Shown here one piece after another: positions 6,621-32,286 of a DNA stretch of 37,995 nucleotides. A program made the position numbers and the translations under genes. Position 1 is the stretch's first letter. Each line of letters starts with the position of its first letter. The notes under the pieces were generated by a model. It was not told the DNA's origin. It saw nothing but the letters and a program-made list of their open reading frames with translations, and ran no database searches. This stretch comes from an uncultured Gammaproteobacteria bacterium (lineage in GTDB: Bacteria; Patescibacteriota; Microgenomatia; Levybacterales; GWA1-39-11): positions 1 through 37,995 of the forward strand of contig CAZFJW010000001.1 of assembly GCA_964519355.1 (NCBI GenBank). The letters run 5' to 3'.

Positions 6621-7654
6621 TATTTTTCCAATGCTTTTTTCCTTTTCAAACGTTCTATCAAAAAATAATATCCTATTAGACCAAGACCTGCAGGAATAAT
6701 ATCATACGTTATGCGAAATAGTACTGAAATAAATATAGCGTCGTGAAGTGAAACTCCAAAGAGAACAAAAATTCCTATCATCGAAGTATCCTGCACGCCA
6801 ATTCCTCCTGGAATTGGCGCAAAAAGTCCTGCAAGTATTCCAAGTGAGAGTCCAACAACCAACACTCCAAACTGTGCATGAATCCCGAATGCCTCAAAAC
6901 ATAACCAGAGCACAACAACCGCAAGCGACCAGGAAAGAAATATACTAACAATAATCTGAAAAGAAATAGAAAGCCTCATCTGCAATCCCTTTGTTCCAAG
7001 AAGCAGTGCTTGATGGATCGGCTCAAGTCTATGATCAATCTCGCGCCTCGTTATAAAAAATATGATTCTTGAAAAAATATCGAGAATTTTTTCTCGAATT
7101 CTTGGAAAAAATACAATAATTGTTGCAATAAAAAATGTCCCAAGTGATATTTCCAAAATAAGCTTTGCAATCGACTCAAGTGCGGGAGTCAAAAGTCCTT
7201 CCAGAAAAAGCCACGCAAAACCAATTGGAACGAACGCTAAAATTCCAAGAAAAACACAATATGTATAGAAAAATGAAGATAAAACAATAGCATGCGTATT
7301 TTTTATTCCAAAATTACGAAGGTATGCCACGCGAATTGAATTCCCTACAATTCCCCCAACATCAAGAAGTTTTCCAACAGGAATCGTAATAGAACCTATA
7401 TAAAAAATTTCTTTACGGTGAATGTTAAGCGAAAAAATCGAGGCAACAAAAACATATGCAAATGTTGAAAAAAGATACGAAATAAATGCCACACCAACAC
7501 CTGCTGCGACATAGTACCATTTCGCATGACGTAAAATGTAATGTGCCTCCTGAGCTTGAAAATACACTACAATTCCAGCAATTATAATGAATACAAAAAA
7601 TAGCAGAGTTAAAAAGGTAAGGCTATCAAACTTTTTAGGTTTTTTTTGTTTCAT
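6620..7654 (-). CDS. Polytopic membrane protein, UPF0104 / lysyl-phosphatidylglycerol-synthase-TM (flippase-like) family candidate
   Basis: 344 aa with about 8 TM helices and a basic N-terminus. The architecture and Gly-rich GGIGVQD segment fit UPF0104. An ATGA overlap links it to the upstream TfoX-like gene. Confidence 0.5.
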   Translation of the reverse strand: MKQKKPKKFDSLTFLTLLFFVFIIIAGIVVYFQAQEAHYILRHAKWYYVAAGVGVAFISYLFSTFAYVFVASIFSLNIHRKEIFYIGSITIPVGKLLDVGGIVGNSIRVAYLRNFGIKNTHAIVLSSFFYTYCVFLGILAFVPIGFAWLFLEGLLTPALESIAKLILEISLGTFFIATIIVFFPRIREKILDIFSRIIFFITRREIDHRLEPIHQALLLGTKGLQMRLSISFQIIVSIFLSWSLAVVVLWLCFEAFGIHAQFGVLVVGLSLGILAGLFAPIPGGIGVQDTSMIGIFVLFGVSLHDAIFISVLFRITYDIIPAGLGLIGYYFLIERLKRKKALEK

Positions 7655-7980
7655 TTTTCCATATGGACAAGAATCGATTTCTCAATCCATTCGACAAGTT
7701 CTTCCTTGTTTTCAAAAAGTCGTTCTGGCAGTTCCCAATAATTTAATGTAACATCTTTATCCTTTGAACGATAGACAAAAGGATGCGAGCCTTCCTCCTC
7801 ATAGTCTTTTTTATTACTCTCCCCAACTTTGAAATATAACTTTCCGTCAGCAATGAGCCCAAACATCTTTCCATCTTTATAAAATCCATACCCCCCAAAC
7901 ATTGCCCGAGAATTTATCCCAAAAAATCCAGAAAAAACATCATGCAAAATGTAATCATGAAAATCTTTGTCTCTGGCCAT
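7651..7980 (-). CDS. TfoX N-terminal domain protein
   Basis: RAMFGGYGFYKDGKMFGLIADGKLYFKV matches the TfoX/Sxy N-terminal domain signature. Confidence 0.75.
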   Translation of the reverse strand: MARDKDFHDYILHDVFSGFFGINSRAMFGGYGFYKDGKMFGLIADGKLYFKVGESNKKDYEEEGSHPFVYRSKDKDVTLNYWELPERLFENKEELVEWIEKSILVHMEK

Positions 7981-10857: not shown

Positions 10858-10927
10858 TTCTCAACCACGCTCACCAAAAAGTAATCCACGCTACACATGC
10901 ATTGTGATCAATACTACTGAACCAAAA

Positions 10928-10948
10928 AACTCTATACTCTACACTCTA
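10928..10948 (+). repeat. Tandem heptamer repeat (N-ACTCTA) x3
   Basis: AACTCTA TACTCTA CACTCTA end 7 nt before ATG 10956. The reverse complement reads TAGAGT(G/A/T), related to the GTAGNNN heptads elsewhere in the window. Confidence 0.7.
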
Positions 10949-10955
10949 ACTAAAC

Positions 10956-11231
10956 ATGAAACAAACCACCCTCACACCGAGCCCAATCTTTGAATGGCCA
11001 TCTATTTCTCTCCATGACTTTACTGATGTCGAGATTGAATTCAGGCCAGCAAAGATTTTCTATAACGCATTCTTTTCGCTTTTTGTGGTTCCCGGAAAAA
11101 TTATTGATTCGTTCAAAAGTGTATTTCTTTCAGATCAAACAATCGATCCCCATCATGTCGAAATTGGAGAGAAAATTGAAAAAGAACTAATTACACTTTT
11201 TGACAAGGCCTATTCACTTGAGGAAGATTAA
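10956..11231 (+). CDS. Hypothetical protein (91 aa)
   Basis: ORF only; no family recognised. It overlaps the convergent gene by 4 nt. Confidence 0.45.
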   Translation: MKQTTLTPSPIFEWPSISLHDFTDVEIEFRPAKIFYNAFFSLFVVPGKIIDSFKSVFLSDQTIDPHHVEIGEKIEKELITLFDKAYSLEED

Positions 11232-20608: not shown

Positions 20609-20629
20609 TTAGATAGTATAACAAAATGA

Positions 20630-20718
20630 GTAGTGTGTAGAAAGTAGTATGTACTATGAGCACGCAAGAAGGACCGTCGTACTGCTATTGCATGCTTATG
20701 CTGCATGATGCAGTACTA
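20630..20718 (+). repeat. ORF-less miniature copy A of the heptad-repeat inverted element
   Basis: Left arm is GTAGTGT GTAGAAA GTAGTAT GTACTAT (20630-20657). Right arm is ATGCTGC ATGATGC AGTACTA (to 20718), resembling the right arm at 30934-30961. It fills the rseP-tsf intergenic space and overlaps the tsf stop codon. Confidence 0.6.
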
Positions 20719-27809: not shown

Positions 27810-28667
27810 ATGAAGAAAAAATCCGCAAGAAAAGTAACACGCAGAGAGCAGAATAAATTCCTCCACTCCGTACGCCTCTTTAGAGGAGACGCAATGGTGA
27901 CATTACTACTTGCAATAGTTGTCATTTCAGCAGTTTTTTTCGTGGGAGGCGCACTTCCCCAGCAATCCCGTGACACTCAAGATCTTTCAAATGAAGGCGT
28001 TATTGACGAAGACTCGCTCTCCTCTTCAACCAACGGCAATCAACTGCAGCTTAAGACCTTAAAATTCAAAAAATGTTCATCAATTGCCGCAGTCAGCATG
28101 ATGCTCGATCGCTCAGGATCTATGGGCAATGATGGAAAAATCACCAAACTCAAATCAGCAACCCTGTCATTTGCATCAAATTTTGCAGACGACTCGGTTA
28201 TTGGAATTCAGTCTTTTGACTCAAATGACATACGTGAAGACGTTCCTATATCCTACTATAAAGATGTAAAAGATTTGGTCGTAACAAAAGTTAATGCACT
28301 CACCCCAGGCGACAAAACCCCCACGTATCGAGCCCTGCAATTCTCTCGCGATATTTTAATACCCGCAATACCAAAGTTCAGTGACCGAACTTTTAATTTT
28401 ATCTTCCTCTCAGACGGCCTCCCCGTTCCGCCCCAGACAGAAGACCCACGAGGATACTCACCCAATCCTGCTGATGAAATTAAGGCTCTTGGAGTAACTG
28501 TGTACACTATTGGAATCTTCGGACCTGCAGATGCTGTTGCAGGAGCTGAGCTGCTAAAAAGCATTGCATCATCTCCTGATAATTATTTTGCTACGCCAAC
28601 GGGTGACGATTTATCAAGTATTTATGCTGCAATTGGAACAAAAATTTGCAGCAAGGCAACAAAGTAG
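27810..28667 (+). CDS. Anchored von Willebrand factor A domain protein 1
   Basis: Basic leader ...LFRG then DAMVTLLLAIVVISAVFFVGG. MIDAS residues are DRSGSMG, GDKTPT and FLSDG. Confidence 0.8.
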   Translation: MKKKSARKVTRREQNKFLHSVRLFRGDAMVTLLLAIVVISAVFFVGGALPQQSRDTQDLSNEGVIDEDSLSSSTNGNQLQLKTLKFKKCSSIAAVSMMLDRSGSMGNDGKITKLKSATLSFASNFADDSVIGIQSFDSNDIREDVPISYYKDVKDLVVTKVNALTPGDKTPTYRALQFSRDILIPAIPKFSDRTFNFIFLSDGLPVPPQTEDPRGYSPNPADEIKALGVTVYTIGIFGPADAVAGAELLKSIASSPDNYFATPTGDDLSSIYAAIGTKICSKATK

Positions 28668-28762
28668 TTTGTATAGTGTAGTATGTGGAATGGAGAATGT
28701 ATGATGCGCAATCTTTTTCAGATCAAGCATAATTCCTAATACATAATTCATTGTACAAAACC
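28664..28762 (+). repeat. ORF-less miniature copy B of the heptad-repeat inverted element
   Basis: Seven in-phase heptads GTAGTTT GTATAGT GTAGTAT GTGGAAT GGAGAAT GTATGAT GCGCAAT span 28664-28712, with G1 and T7 invariant. Right arm is CATAATT CCTAATA CATAATT CATTGTA CAAAACC (28728-28762). The left arm overlaps the vWA-1 stop codon. Confidence 0.7.
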
Positions 28763-28769
28763 CCAAATA

Positions 28770-28799
28770 TTGACAACCCCGACACATACTATCTAGAAT
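28770..28799 (+). promoter_or_regulatory. Sigma70-like promoter TTGACA-18-TAGAAT (leaderless configuration)
   Basis: The -10 box ends 5 nt before ATG 28805. Confidence 0.5.
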
Positions 28800-29791: not shown

Positions 29792-29820
29792 GAACAATTC
29801 CTCCCTAAAAATACGACTTT

Positions 29821-29829
29821 TGATATAAT
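29821..29829 (+). promoter_or_regulatory. Extended -10 element TGaTATAAT
   Basis: It ends 6 nt before the uppS ATG at 29836. No convincing -35 box was seen. Confidence 0.4.
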
Positions 29830-29835
29830 ATCCCT

Positions 29836-30546
29836 ATGCCAAAAAAGGACGAATCAATTTTATTGCCCAAACACGTCGCTATTATTCCCGATGGGAACAG
29901 ACGCTGGGCAAAGGAACACAACCTGCCCTCACTCCAAGGACACAGAAAGGGTTTTCAAGTTGCACAGGTTTTGGCGCGTAAAATTCGTGCATCAGGAGTT
30001 CCCACGCTTACTTTTTGGGCTTTTTCGACGGAAAATTGGAAAAGAGACAGTAAAGAAGTTGGATACCTCATGCAATTTTACAGTAAGTTTCTTGAAAAAA
30101 ATCTTCTCAGCATGGATGATGAAAAGGTTAGGTATATCCACCTTGGAAGAAAAGACAGAATTCCTGAAAAATTACTGGCAAAGATTGAAAACATCGAAGA
30201 AAAAACCAAAAAATTCAAAAAATACTACCTTAATTTTGCACTCGACTACGGAGGTCATGATGAAATTTTAAGAGCAGTTAAAAAAATAGTCGGCAAAGGC
30301 CTTAAAAGCGATGAGGTAACCGAGCAGCTTATTGCAGAAAATCTTGATACAGCGCAAGAACCTTATCCAAACCCAGATCTTGTCATCCGCACCAGTGGCG
30401 AAAATAGAACCTCAGGATTTATGCCATGGCAGGCAGCATACGCAGAGTACATTTTTATAGATAAATATTTTCCCGAGTTAACTGAGGGAGATATAGACTG
30501 GGCACTGGCTGAATACTCAAGAAGGCAAAGAAGATTTGGTAAGTAA
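29836..30546 (+). CDS. uppS: Undecaprenyl-diphosphate synthase (cis-prenyltransferase)
   Basis: HVAIIPDGNRRWAK, FAFSTENWKR-like and IRTSGE.R.S.F motifs. Confidence 0.9.
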   Translation: MPKKDESILLPKHVAIIPDGNRRWAKEHNLPSLQGHRKGFQVAQVLARKIRASGVPTLTFWAFSTENWKRDSKEVGYLMQFYSKFLEKNLLSMDDEKVRYIHLGRKDRIPEKLLAKIENIEEKTKKFKKYYLNFALDYGGHDEILRAVKKIVGKGLKSDEVTEQLIAENLDTAQEPYPNPDLVIRTSGENRTSGFMPWQAAYAEYIFIDKYFPELTEGDIDWALAEYSRRQRRFGK

Positions 30547-30550
30547 AATT

Positions 30551-30585
30551 GCAGGATGTAGCATGTAGAACGCAGTATGCAAAAA
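30551..30585 (+). repeat. Left heptad-repeat arm flanking the four-helix-bundle gene
   Basis: GCAGGAT GTAGCAT GTAGAAC GCAGTAT GCAAAAA. The ATG at 30577-30579 lies inside the fourth heptad. Confidence 0.7.
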
Positions 30586-30945
30586 ATCCAGTCATTTACA
30601 GACTTAAACGCCTGGAAAGAAGCGCACGTCCTCGTTCTCAATATCTACAAAGAAACGAAAAAATTTCCCGATGATGAAAAATTTGGACTTACCAACCAGA
30701 TGCGAAGATCTGCCGTCTCAATAACTTCAAATATTGCAGAAGGTTTCTCAAGAAAGGGAACGAAGGAAAAAATCCAATATTGTTATTTGGCTCTTGGGTC
30801 TCTAGCCGAACTACAAAATCAACTTGTAATTTCAAGAGATATTGGTTATATTTCTAATACAGATTTTCAATTACTCGCAGAGAAATCAATTATAGTTAGC
30901 AAATTAATTAATGGGCTTATTAAATCAAAATCGCATACAACATAA
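30577..30945 (+). CDS. Four-helix-bundle protein (23S rRNA intervening-sequence protein / Avd family)
   Basis: FTDLNAWKEAH...FPDDEKFGLTNQMRRSAVSITSNIAEG...LGSLAELQNQL is characteristic of this family. Confidence 0.85.
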   Translation: MQKIQSFTDLNAWKEAHVLVLNIYKETKKFPDDEKFGLTNQMRRSAVSITSNIAEGFSRKGTKEKIQYCYLALGSLAELQNQLVISRDIGYISNTDFQLLAEKSIIVSKLINGLIKSKSHTT

Positions 30946-30968
30946 TTCATACTACATTCTTCAATTAT
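30934..30968 (+). repeat. Right heptad-repeat arm flanking the four-helix-bundle gene
   Basis: CATACAA CATAATT CATACTA CATTCTT CAATTAT. Its reverse complement matches the left arm at 20 of 30 positions plus one G-U, with blocks of 12 and 6 bp. It contains the stop TAA (30943-30945) and abuts the glyA ATG. Confidence 0.7.
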
Positions 30969-32286
30969 GAACCTAAAACAAACCGACCCCCAAATCTTCC
31001 AACTCATAAAAGATGAGGAAAAAAGACAGCGCGATGTGCTTGAGATGATACCGTCTGAGAATTACACATCAAGCGCTGTGCTAGAAGCTTTGGGATCAGT
31101 TCTAAACAATAAATATTCTGAGGGCTACCCCAAAAAAAGATATTATCAGGGAAATGCCGTAGCTGACAGCGTTGAAATACTTGCACAAGAACGGGCAAAA
31201 AAACTTTTTAATGTTCCTTACGTTAATGTCCAGGCACTATCAGGAAGTCCGGCAAATTTGGCAGTATACACTGCGCTTCTGGAACCGATGAAGGGTAAAA
31301 TTATGGGTCTATCTCTTGCATTTGGAGGTCATTTGACTCACGGACAGCCTCAATCATCTACTGGAAAATTTTTTCGCTCCACCCTTTTTGAATTAGGAAA
31401 AGATGCGCATCTTGATTATGCCGCAATAGAAAAACAAGCACTAGCTGAAAAACCCGATATTATTGTCTGTGGATTTACCGCGTATCCTCGTGAAATTGAC
31501 TTTGCAAAATTCGGCAAAATTGCTGATAAAGTCGGATGCTATCTCATGGCAGACATTTCCCATATTGCAGGGCTTGTTGCCTCAGGTGTCCATCCCTCTC
31601 CAGTTCCTTATGCACATATCATAACCACAACAACTCACAAAACACTTCGAGGCCCAAGAGGAGCCCTCATTATGGTGACGGCAAAGGGCCTAGAAAAAAA
31701 TGCTGACCTTCCTAAGAAAATCGATACAGCGATTATCCCTGGACTCCAAGGTGGACCGCACGACAACCAAACAGCAGCAATTGCTGTTGCACTAAAAGAA
31801 GCTGATACAAAAGAGTTCAAAAAATATTCACTACAAATTGTAAAGAATGCAAAGGCTTTATCTGAAGAACTTATCAAGCGTGGTTTTGATCTGGTAAGCG
31901 GTGGGACGGATAACCATCTTTTGTTGATAGATCTCCGAAATAAAAAAGTAAATGGTGCGGTTGCTGCATATGCGCTCGAGAAAGCAGGAATAGTTCTCAA
32001 TAAAAATGGTGTACCATTTGATACCAATCCGCCATTTTATCCCTCGGGAATTCGGCTTGGAACTCCCGCAATAACTACTCGCGGCATGAATGAACGTGAC
32101 ATGAAAAAAGTTGCTGAGTGGATTGATAGAACACTGCAAGCAGTTGGTGAAGCTGTAATTCCAAAAATTCAGGAAGAAAGAAATCCTTGGATGCGGGATC
32201 AGAAAAAGCGCATAAATTCTAATGGTGAAATTAAGAAAATTGAAAAAGAAGTGAGGAGTTTTGCAACTAAATTTCCGTTGCCTTAA
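30967..32286 (+). CDS. glyA: Serine hydroxymethyltransferase
   Basis: 439 aa with TTTTHKTLRGPRG (PLP-lysine motif) and other SHMT motifs. Confidence 0.95.
   Translation: MNLKQTDPQIFQLIKDEEKRQRDVLEMIPSENYTSSAVLEALGSVLNNKYSEGYPKKRYYQGNAVADSVEILAQERAKKLFNVPYVNVQALSGSPANLAVYTALLEPMKGKIMGLSLAFGGHLTHGQPQSSTGKFFRSTLFELGKDAHLDYAAIEKQALAEKPDIIVCGFTAYPREIDFAKFGKIADKVGCYLMADISHIAGLVASGVHPSPVPYAHIITTTTHKTLRGPRGALIMVTAKGLEKNADLPKKIDTAIIPGLQGGPHDNQTAAIAVALKEADTKEFKKYSLQIVKNAKALSEELIKRGFDLVSGGTDNHLLLIDLRNKKVNGAVAAYALEKAGIVLNKNGVPFDTNPPFYPSGIRLGTPAITTRGMNERDMKKVAEWIDRTLQAVGEAVIPKIQEERNPWMRDQKKRINSNGEIKKIEKEVRSFATKFPLP

Follow-up and report, generated by a model that had tools for sequence, protein, structure and literature searches.

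The DNA examined here (the window) is a contig of 37,995 nt from an uncultured bacterium that GTDB places in the Levybacterales (GenBank assembly GCA_964519355.1, contig CAZFJW010000001.1). Its uppS-glyA spacer holds a small gene for a four-helix-bundle protein, enclosed by inverted arrays of seven-nucleotide repeats (heptads). With a probability of roughly 60%, we take this spacer to be a member of a large family of hairpin-armed cassettes without promoters, elements of the same type as the ORF-bearing intervening sequences (IVSs) of 23S rRNA, that has lodged between protein-coding genes. The same architecture is general among homologs of the gene, which run in the same direction as their neighbors and are packed tightly against them; judged by its divergence, the cassette has been exchanged between lineages as a unit; and a nearby hairpin lacking the ORF (open reading frame) has an allele that keeps both ends of that frame.

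The cassette fills the 420 nt between the two host genes (30547-30966). A previous interpretation of this DNA (the sequence-only reading) had described a four-helix-bundle gene within heptad-periodic inverted repeats that contain its start and stop codons, and its coordinates and heptads proved accurate. The left-arm heptads begin 4 nt past the uppS stop codon and include the cassette ATG (30577), which lies in the inner left pairing block; the TAA (30943-30945) lies in the right arm between its pairing blocks, and the last two bases of that arm are the AT of the glyA start codon. Within each arm 18 of 28 positions match the base seven positions away (P=0.0002 on the left and P=0.0018 on the right, against dinucleotide shuffles).

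The encoded protein belongs to PF05635 (23S_rRNA_IVP), exceeding the Pfam gathering score (126.6 bits against a cut-off of 33.8; E 5.6e-37) over profile positions 2-106 of 106, and it matches PDB 2GSC (XCC0516, a pentameric four-helix bundle) with E 4.5e-21. The protein collection holds 4766 homologs at ~60-75% identity; those with source names come nearly all from lineages of the candidate phyla radiation (CPR, or Patescibacteria), the window itself being Levybacteria-like, and the protein core is well conserved, at ~65-70% identity across CPR phyla. An Rfam scan of the window at gathering threshold returned no matches and no rRNA, and ARAGORN found no tRNA in it.

The arms form an inverted repeat of 34 nt (30547-30580 with 30933-30966) that is 74% complementary. 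Their duplex is predicted at -24.7 kcal/mol, against -9.9±2.3 kcal/mol for dinucleotide-shuffled right arms (z -6.4; none of 2000 shuffles reached it); among genomic 41-mers, only 0.3% match the window arms in pairing. The minimum-free-energy fold of 30545-30975 includes the long-range stem, as the sequence-only reading had anticipated in suggesting that a transcript could close off the ORF; the stem is thus more stable than shuffled controls, while the z-score of the whole region is only -1.85. The copy is a weak member of its family, with an arm-complementarity score of 27 against a family mean of 37, and the arms of the orthologous cassette in a sister lineage pair better (-33.6 kcal/mol). 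The window stem is a decaying example of the family.

Heptad arms and operon context of homologous cassettes

We fetched 80 homologous loci from species-representative genomes and computed arm statistics over 73 of them, drawn from many CPR lineages. Nearly every gene is flanked by tandem heptads, the left array ending at or including the ATG and the right array including the stop codon. The unit varies from locus to locus (GTAGTAT, GTATTAA, GAATTAT, GAATCAT, GGAAGTA and others), and each right arm is the reverse complement of its own left arm. Identity at lag 7 averages 0.47 in left and 0.49 in right arms, compared with 0.29 in controls taken inside the ORF or 700 nt away, and the periodicity extends to lag 14 (0.43) and lag 21 (0.39-0.40). 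On the sense strand, in register with the ATG, the 5' unit in CPR reads roughly G-W-A-K-T-A-W, and the 3' arm carries the reverse complement of it; C makes up 6% of left arms and G 9% of right arms.

Complementarity is specific to the locus. The mean arm-complementarity score is 37 for cognate arms, 23.7 for non-cognate arms and 17.6 for shuffles, and the median stem has 28 bp, 83% of them Watson-Crick. The expectation that other loci of this protein family would carry such flanks is therefore borne out in nearly all of the 73, both in the lag-7 signal and in cognate pairing. Watson-Crick pairs make up a fraction of 0.61 in the best register, 0.51-0.52 when the arms are displaced by ±7, 0.46-0.47 at ±14 and 0.23-0.34 at other shifts: the arms are complementary repeat arrays that form a multi-register zipper, rather than unique palindromes. 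Heptad class and protein core show only a weak association (core identity 0.624 within a class and 0.613 between classes; 14 of 1000 permutations as extreme), which argues against each protein recognizing the unit of its own cassette sequence-specifically.

The same architecture occurs outside CPR. A tblastn search of annotated plasmids found homologs in Nostocales, other cyanobacteria, Riemerella, Azospirillum and Gemmatirosa. Among the 12 that we examined, eight have their best lag at 7 on both flanks, a ninth does so on one flank, and the other three peak at lag 8 or 11. The units vary with genome composition: AGTCAGG in Nostoc and Aulosira, GGGTGTA in Calothrix, a GGAGATA-type unit in Picosynechococcus (measured best lag 8), AAAAGCT in a more complex arrangement in Pseudanabaena, AAGGTTT in Riemerella, GGGAAGA in Geminocystis, GGTGACA in Anabaena sp. 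90 and an 8-mer unit in Gemmatirosa. In the Azospirillum replicon (L111) the homolog sits inside a 23S rRNA gene (Rfam LSU rRNA, 1702 bits), 3' of a CCGAAGCUGCGGAU segment that we take to be the helix-45 region of 23S rRNA. Its arms are heptad-periodic and complementary, with CAGAGGA CGGATGA CAGAGGA CGGAGGA on the left and TCCGTCC TCTGTCT TCTGTCA TCCGTCT on the right (GACAGAG/GACGGAG-type). In Coxiella, two to three tandem GACAGAT heptamers, variable in copy number among strains, lie directly 5' of the ATG of the IVS-encoded protein S23p, and RNase III cuts at the start of the first of them (PMC4990558). 23S_rRNA_IVP ORFs also occur in insertions of CPR 16S and 23S rRNA (PMC11270868). The likeness to IVS topology pointed out by the sequence-only reading thus holds more strongly than was proposed, in that the heptad arms themselves are shared (L111; Coxiella, PMC4990558), and on the sequences at hand heptad arms are a hallmark of the cassette family across several bacterial phyla.

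In the cyanobacterial plasmids L108, L109 and L114, PF05635 genes and tandem-repeat arrays lie co-directionally inside CRISPR-Cas operons, in the cas10/cmr3 and cas6/cas4 intervals; the flanking arrays of L109 are direct repeats, not inverted ones. Heptad-armed copies in such operons may be a source of reports of 'cas-associated' 23S_rRNA_IVP.

Cassette genes are strongly co-oriented with their neighbors, in 123 of 134 pairs (92%) against a background of 71% for other adjacent pairs of these loci (Fisher P 2e-6). Typically, 6-50 nt separate the end of the upstream gene from the cassette ATG, and the next gene starts 3-60 nt past the cassette stop, so that the arms abut or overlap the neighboring genes. 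A Shine-Dalgarno-like motif precedes only 5 of 74 cassette genes, and we saw none 5' of the window copy. A promoter scan likewise found no promoter-like site between uppS and the window cassette, which therefore probably relies on host transcription. The region's best promoter-like site lies at 28770-28799, past the ORF-less hairpin described below and before the second of two VWA genes; it is a near-consensus sigma-70-type promoter (TTGACA, an 18-nt spacer and TAGAAT; 11 of 12 matches). With a promoter directly past it, the hairpin sits between a gene end and a promoter.

Arms also supply codons to host genes. The TAG stop of the upstream VWA gene (VWA1) lies in the first heptad of that hairpin. 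In the uppS-glyA slot of L094 (2545-2620), a relative of the window lineage, the ATG of glyA at its usual position is missing, and the sole in-frame start is a right-arm ATG overlapping the stop codon of the cassette as TAATG; glyA gains ~14 arm-encoded residues, and the host gene in this lineage depends on the cassette for its start codon. Because seven is not a multiple of three, arrays that carry ATG or TAA in each unit offer these codons in all three frames, and we infer that cells make use of them.

Exchange of the cassette and ORF-less hairpins

The closest relatives of the window cassette occur at the same position in a sister lineage represented by eight independent assemblies (L091-L093, L116-L122). 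Nucleotide identity between the window and this lineage is 97% in the cassette gene, compared with 85-86% in uppS and ~75% in glyA. Synonymous divergence (dS; NG86) is 0.08 in the cassette gene, 1.05 in uppS and 2.1 in glyA, placing the cassette ~13-fold below its flanks. The drop in identity coincides with the right arm on one side and lies within ~40 nt of the left arm on the other. Judged by this pattern, lineages have exchanged the cassette as one unit with the arms as its boundaries, which accords with the cassette interpretation of the sequence-only reading.

Further, relatives hold different cassettes in the same slot. In L094 the uppS-glyA spacer contains a 65%-identical four-helix-bundle gene with GTATNNN arms; in L095 and L096 the occupant is a PF05635 gene with 24% identity and with arms of reversed strand polarity (left TCTAAAN, right TTTAGAA). 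The uppS proteins of these slot-sharing lineages are 81-83% identical. The sequence-only reading had proposed comparing this spacer across relatives for presence or absence of the element, and the comparison yielded other cassettes in the slot but no empty site. The L095 element (L095:3212-3680) represents a divergent PF05635 subfamily of 119 aa with arms poor in G on the 5' side and poor in C on the 3' side, and some AT-only ORF-less hairpins of L038, L050 and L073 share its arm polarity. Elsewhere, in L098-L100 (680-1130), a PF05635 cassette follows a promoter-like sequence and lies ~35 nt 5' of a tRNA-like sequence (tRNA-Pro), both identified by eye; a related Levybacteria locus, L101 (1619-1700), has promoter-like and tRNA-like sequences without the cassette. 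A scan of viral contigs found no relatives. An exact 39-mer from within the cassette, which occurs in the JGI-derived loci L119 and L122, had no match in a metagenome DNA collection that does not contain those records.

A single species carries two alleles of the ORF-less hairpin between the two VWA genes. The window and L001 have allele A; L005-L007, and also the sister lineage (L091), have allele B. The two are 72% identical, while the flanking genes are 99.8-100% identical. Allele B keeps ATGCAAAAAA and AATCAAA-CGCATAA, which correspond to the two ends of the cassette ORF. Of that frame it retains 10 nt at the start and about 15 nt at the end, and it aligns with the cassette collapsed onto its ends at a score of 88 (shuffled maximum 41). 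Because both ends of the ORF are retained, allele B is, by its sequence, a derivative of the cassette that arose by internal deletion. Allele A scores 47 against the collapsed cassette (shuffled maximum 34) and 73 against allele B (shuffled maximum 38), and it keeps an in-frame mini-ORF of 12 codons (ATGATGCGC...TCCTAA). The ORF-less copies in the window belong, as far as these alignments indicate, to the same hairpin family as the cassette arms.

The sequence-only reading had reported two ORF-less copies in the window. Both exist, but what it took at 20.6 kb for left-arm heptads on the plus strand is the right arm of a minus-strand element. That element has right-arm-type heptads (CATAGTA CATACTA CTTTCTA CACACTA) at 20630-20657 and GCAGCAT/GCATCAT-type units at 20680-20716, and it lies in a minus-strand operon in the order rpsB-tsf-element-rseP-frr, with the usual polarity when read on that strand. 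The 0.5 Mb of flanking sequence that was fetched contains about 20 more heptad hairpins without an ORF; their orientation relative to flanking genes follows a trend only (6 versus 2 strict cases). Candidate hairpin pairs with cargo other than a four-helix-bundle gene were rejected, the apparent cases being host genes that lie between two neighboring elements.

Coordinates of the features are collected in Table 1. The solo array at 10926-10950, for which we found no partner arm, may be a relic of an element; the ORF that follows it is unannotated, encodes 91 aa and lies downstream of a Crp-family regulator gene. L091 (2004-2500) and L095 (2023-2500) have ~490 nt separating the second VWA gene from uppS, where the window has only 44 nt (29792-29835); this stretch encodes Ser/Tyr/Gln-rich low-complexity sequence that is not called as a gene.

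Table 1. Cassette, arms, ORF-less elements and host genes in the window
Feature	Position	Strand	Details
Cassette gene, 122 aa, PF05635 (23S_rRNA_IVP) four-helix-bundle protein	30577-30945	+	
Left (5') arm	30547-30585	+	Heptads GCAGGAT GTAGCAT GTAGAAC GCAGTAT GCAAAAA at 30551-30585
Right (3') arm	30933-30968	+	Heptads CATACAA CATAATT CATACTA CATTCTT CAATTAT at 30934-30968
uppS, upstream host gene	29836-30546	+	Pfam PF01255, E 2e-71; co-oriented with cassette
glyA, downstream host gene	30967-32286	+	Pfam PF00464, E 1.7e-158; start codon abuts right arm; co-oriented
ORF-less heptad hairpin between two VWA genes	28664-28761	+	Fold -25.3 kcal/mol on + strand
Degenerate ORF-less element, tsf-rseP spacer	~20609-20716	-	Weak fold (z -1.25); least certain copy
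Solo right-arm-like array ACTCTAT ACTCTAC ACTCTAA	10926-10950	+	5 nt 5' of the ATG of ORF 10956-11231

Proposed mechanism and competing explanations

We propose that the cassette would be transcribed by read-through from the host operon, and that its arms would zip, in any of several registers because both are arrays of one unit, into a stem of ~25-35 bp. By analogy with rRNA IVSs, this stem could serve as a substrate for RNase III, whose cleavage would free the cassette RNA and separate the flanking host RNAs from each other. Arms are seen to end the upstream gene and, in some relatives, to give the downstream gene its start codon; stops and ATGs available in all frames would let a cassette sit among tightly packed genes with little polar damage. 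The four-helix-bundle protein may bind nucleic acid, as its pentameric Avd-like relatives suggest. Candidate routes of movement are recombination after DNA uptake, a hairpin recombinase acting in trans, or an RNA-mediated route. TfoX is a competence regulator in other bacteria, and the window encodes a TfoX_N-domain protein at 7651-7980, possibly relevant if cassettes spread via DNA uptake and recombination.

Several observations weigh against this explanation. The window ORFs encode no transposase, integrase or reverse transcriptase, and hence no evident means of movement. No empty uppS-glyA site was found among relatives, synteny being lost at ~64% uppS identity and L097 (72%) being uninformative. 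The low dS of the cassette could stem from a short tract of homologous recombination whose ends fell near the arms by chance. Elements persist at orthologous sites in lineages whose uppS is ~81-83% identical, which would also fit a domesticated host function. The stem, which the sequence-only reading had suggested examining for covariation, shows no compensatory arm changes among close orthologs of the window cassette: of six arm differences from the sister lineage, three disrupt pairing in the window copy, one replaces a mismatch by a wobble and two fall at positions that are mismatched in both lineages, and a polymorphism inside the sister lineage changes a C-G pair to U-G. Family-wide, arm mismatches comprise 56 G-U and 54 A-C, so the excess of G-U expected as a sign of RNA-level selection is absent, and arm complementarity could be kept at the DNA level instead of being selected in RNA. 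Finally, both RNase III cleavage and co-transcription are steps that we infer, by analogy with the rRNA elements.

The main rival holds that the arms act primarily as DNA, either as terminal inverted repeats (TIRs) or as single-stranded hairpin sites for a recombinase acting in trans (of the IS200/IS605, REP-associated tyrosine transposase (RAYT)/repetitive extragenic palindrome (REP) or integron attC type), with the ORF-less hairpins as MITEs (miniature inverted-repeat transposable elements) and the RNA stem incidental. The balance of G-U and A-C mismatches, the replacement of one cassette by another in a single slot, the existence of ORF-less derivatives, the swapped hairpin allele in a near-identical background and the exchange of the cassette as a unit are all points in its favor. 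We nevertheless consider it unlikely, since the window encodes no transposase, integrase or reverse transcriptase; no target-site duplication is evident by eye at the few junctions inspected; copies within one genome differ in their arms, which pair at the level of repeat units and not as unique termini; co-orientation with host transcription is strong; and the same architecture occurs in rRNA, where excision by RNase III is documented (PMC4990558). The RNA-level and DNA-level explanations are not mutually exclusive.

That the hairpins, with or without the gene, are domesticated host modules, for example insulating transcription, spacing translationally coupled genes or marking sites of RNA processing or stability, with the protein an ordinary host factor, would explain why elements occupy orthologous positions (the VWA-VWA spacer and the uppS-glyA slot) in lineages with uppS proteins ~81-83% identical, why periodicity and complementarity of the arms persist after loss of the ORF, why arms provide host stop and start codons, and why the protein core is so highly conserved across CPR phyla (~65-70% identity). 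This account is less probable still, given a cassette dS ~13-fold below the flanks, a different family member in the same slot of relatives, two divergent hairpin alleles within one species and highly varied contexts (rRNA, just 5' of a tRNA gene, inside CRISPR-Cas operons). Allele swaps, slot replacement, varied contexts and low dS are behaviors of a selfish or exchangeable element. It is very improbable that the locus is an ordinary gene among slippage-prone simple-sequence repeats whose inverted symmetry is coincidental: heptameric simple-sequence repeats are common in some bacteria (PMC4692102, PMC4679880) and the fold of the whole region scores only z -1.85, but the arm duplex reaches z -6.4, nearly all of the 73 loci combine lag-7 periodicity on both flanks with cognate complementarity despite differing units, and the pattern recurs in other phyla and in an rRNA IVS. 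We rule out identification of the gene as an Avd accessory gene of a diversity-generating retroelement (DGR). Avd and IVP proteins are related four-helix bundles and the protein matches the bAvd profile PF22296 weakly, but its 27 bits fall below the cut-off of 40 bits and the window contains neither a reverse transcriptase nor a template/variable repeat pair.

Beyond the hairpin-armed cassette proposed for this locus, a broader unification is possible, and we offer it tentatively as something we would rather doubt than expect. Heptad-armed PF05635 cassettes and ORF-less hairpins would constitute one pan-bacterial class of promoter-less mobile cassettes; rRNA IVSs would be the subset that landed in rRNA; the heptameric repeats of Xanthomonas, cyanobacteria and other groups would be arms or relics; and the Avd-like pentamer would be a mobility or maintenance factor acting on the arms, possibly via an RNA intermediate.

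Comparison with known systems

The origin, mobility and function of rRNA IVSs and of their conserved ORF have been in question since the early 1990s. All three properties of the IVS are still called unclear in the Coxiella study (PMC4990558). The family described here offers a concrete and countable model for the spread and decay of IVS-type elements: the cassette architecture is abundant between ordinary CPR genes, cyanobacteria, Bacteroidota and a true IVS have tandem-repeat arms as well, and the age of a cassette can fall an order of magnitude short of that of the genes that flank it. It also supplies many natural variants for testing the roles of the arms and of the four-helix-bundle protein. 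In CPR genomes, many intergenic hairpins that lack annotation and many unusual start and stop codons may have their explanation in this family, as may the 'four helix bundle protein' genes inside CRISPR-Cas operons.

Integron cassettes are likewise promoter-less, carry a single gene, are co-oriented with host transcription and interchangeable at a slot, and have imperfect inverted repeats. The window, however, has neither an integrase nor attI/attC structure, hairpin arms stand on both sides of the ORF, and the slots are scattered among housekeeping genes. The Avd protein of DGRs has a related four-helix-bundle fold, and both Avd and XCC0516 (2GSC) form pentamers; the window differs from a DGR in having no reverse transcriptase and no template or variable repeats, and its bAvd score is sub-threshold.

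MITEs and REP elements resemble the ORF-less hairpins in being short, palindromic and intergenic, tied to a longer ORF-bearing element and present several times per genome region. The window elements differ in lacking a transposase or RAYT and in having arms that are multi-register tandem repeats, not unique TIRs. Further, copies within one genome are not near-identical as MITE copies are, the arms of the window elements differing among themselves (38 kb of the genome examined). The sequence-only reading had suggested an IVS-like or MITE-like cassette; the IVS-like part stands, but a MITE in the strict sense does not fit a locus with no transposase, no near-identical dispersed copies and no target-site duplication evident by eye in a few junctions.

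The cyanobacterial short tandemly repeated repetitive (STRR) sequences are one family of heptameric intergenic repeats. Others with tandem 7-nt units between genes, as in the window, are GGGAATC in Xanthomonas and GGGGAYT in Nostoc (PMC4692102) and TAACTGA in Beggiatoa and cyanobacteria (PMC4679880). The Xanthomonas heptamers often form convergent pairs able to fold into stem-loops, and their position is stable between related species (PMC4692102). The window arrays differ from these published repeats in being the arms of a gene cassette or of its deletion derivatives. Neither paper (PMC4692102, PMC4679880) mentions S23p, 23S, intervening sequences or four-helix-bundle genes, and among open-access papers and bioRxiv the only published link between heptamer repeats and S23p or four-helix-bundle genes that we found is the descriptive note on Coxiella. 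Of interest here are the generalization that tandem-repeat arms mark a whole cassette family and the direct evidence of unit-wise exchange.

The closest likeness is to the 23S rRNA IVSs of Leptospira, Coxiella, Brucella and the Xanthomonas-type S23p, which share with the window cassette the PF05635 protein, a size of ~420-440 nt and complementary termini enclosing the ORF, and also, in Coxiella (PMC4990558) and Azospirillum (L111), tandem heptamers directly before the ATG. The window copy differs in its position between the protein-coding genes of an mRNA operon, not in helix 9, 25 or 45, and in its AU-rich, imperfect stem (74%). Cleavage in such an mRNA would separate cistrons, not fragment an rRNA that is held together in the ribosome. 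The locus therefore combines three defining features of IVSs (the protein family, the complementary termini and the pre-ATG heptamers) with a location outside rRNA, and we describe it as IVS-like, rather than as an IVS by definition, with excision suggested by analogy.

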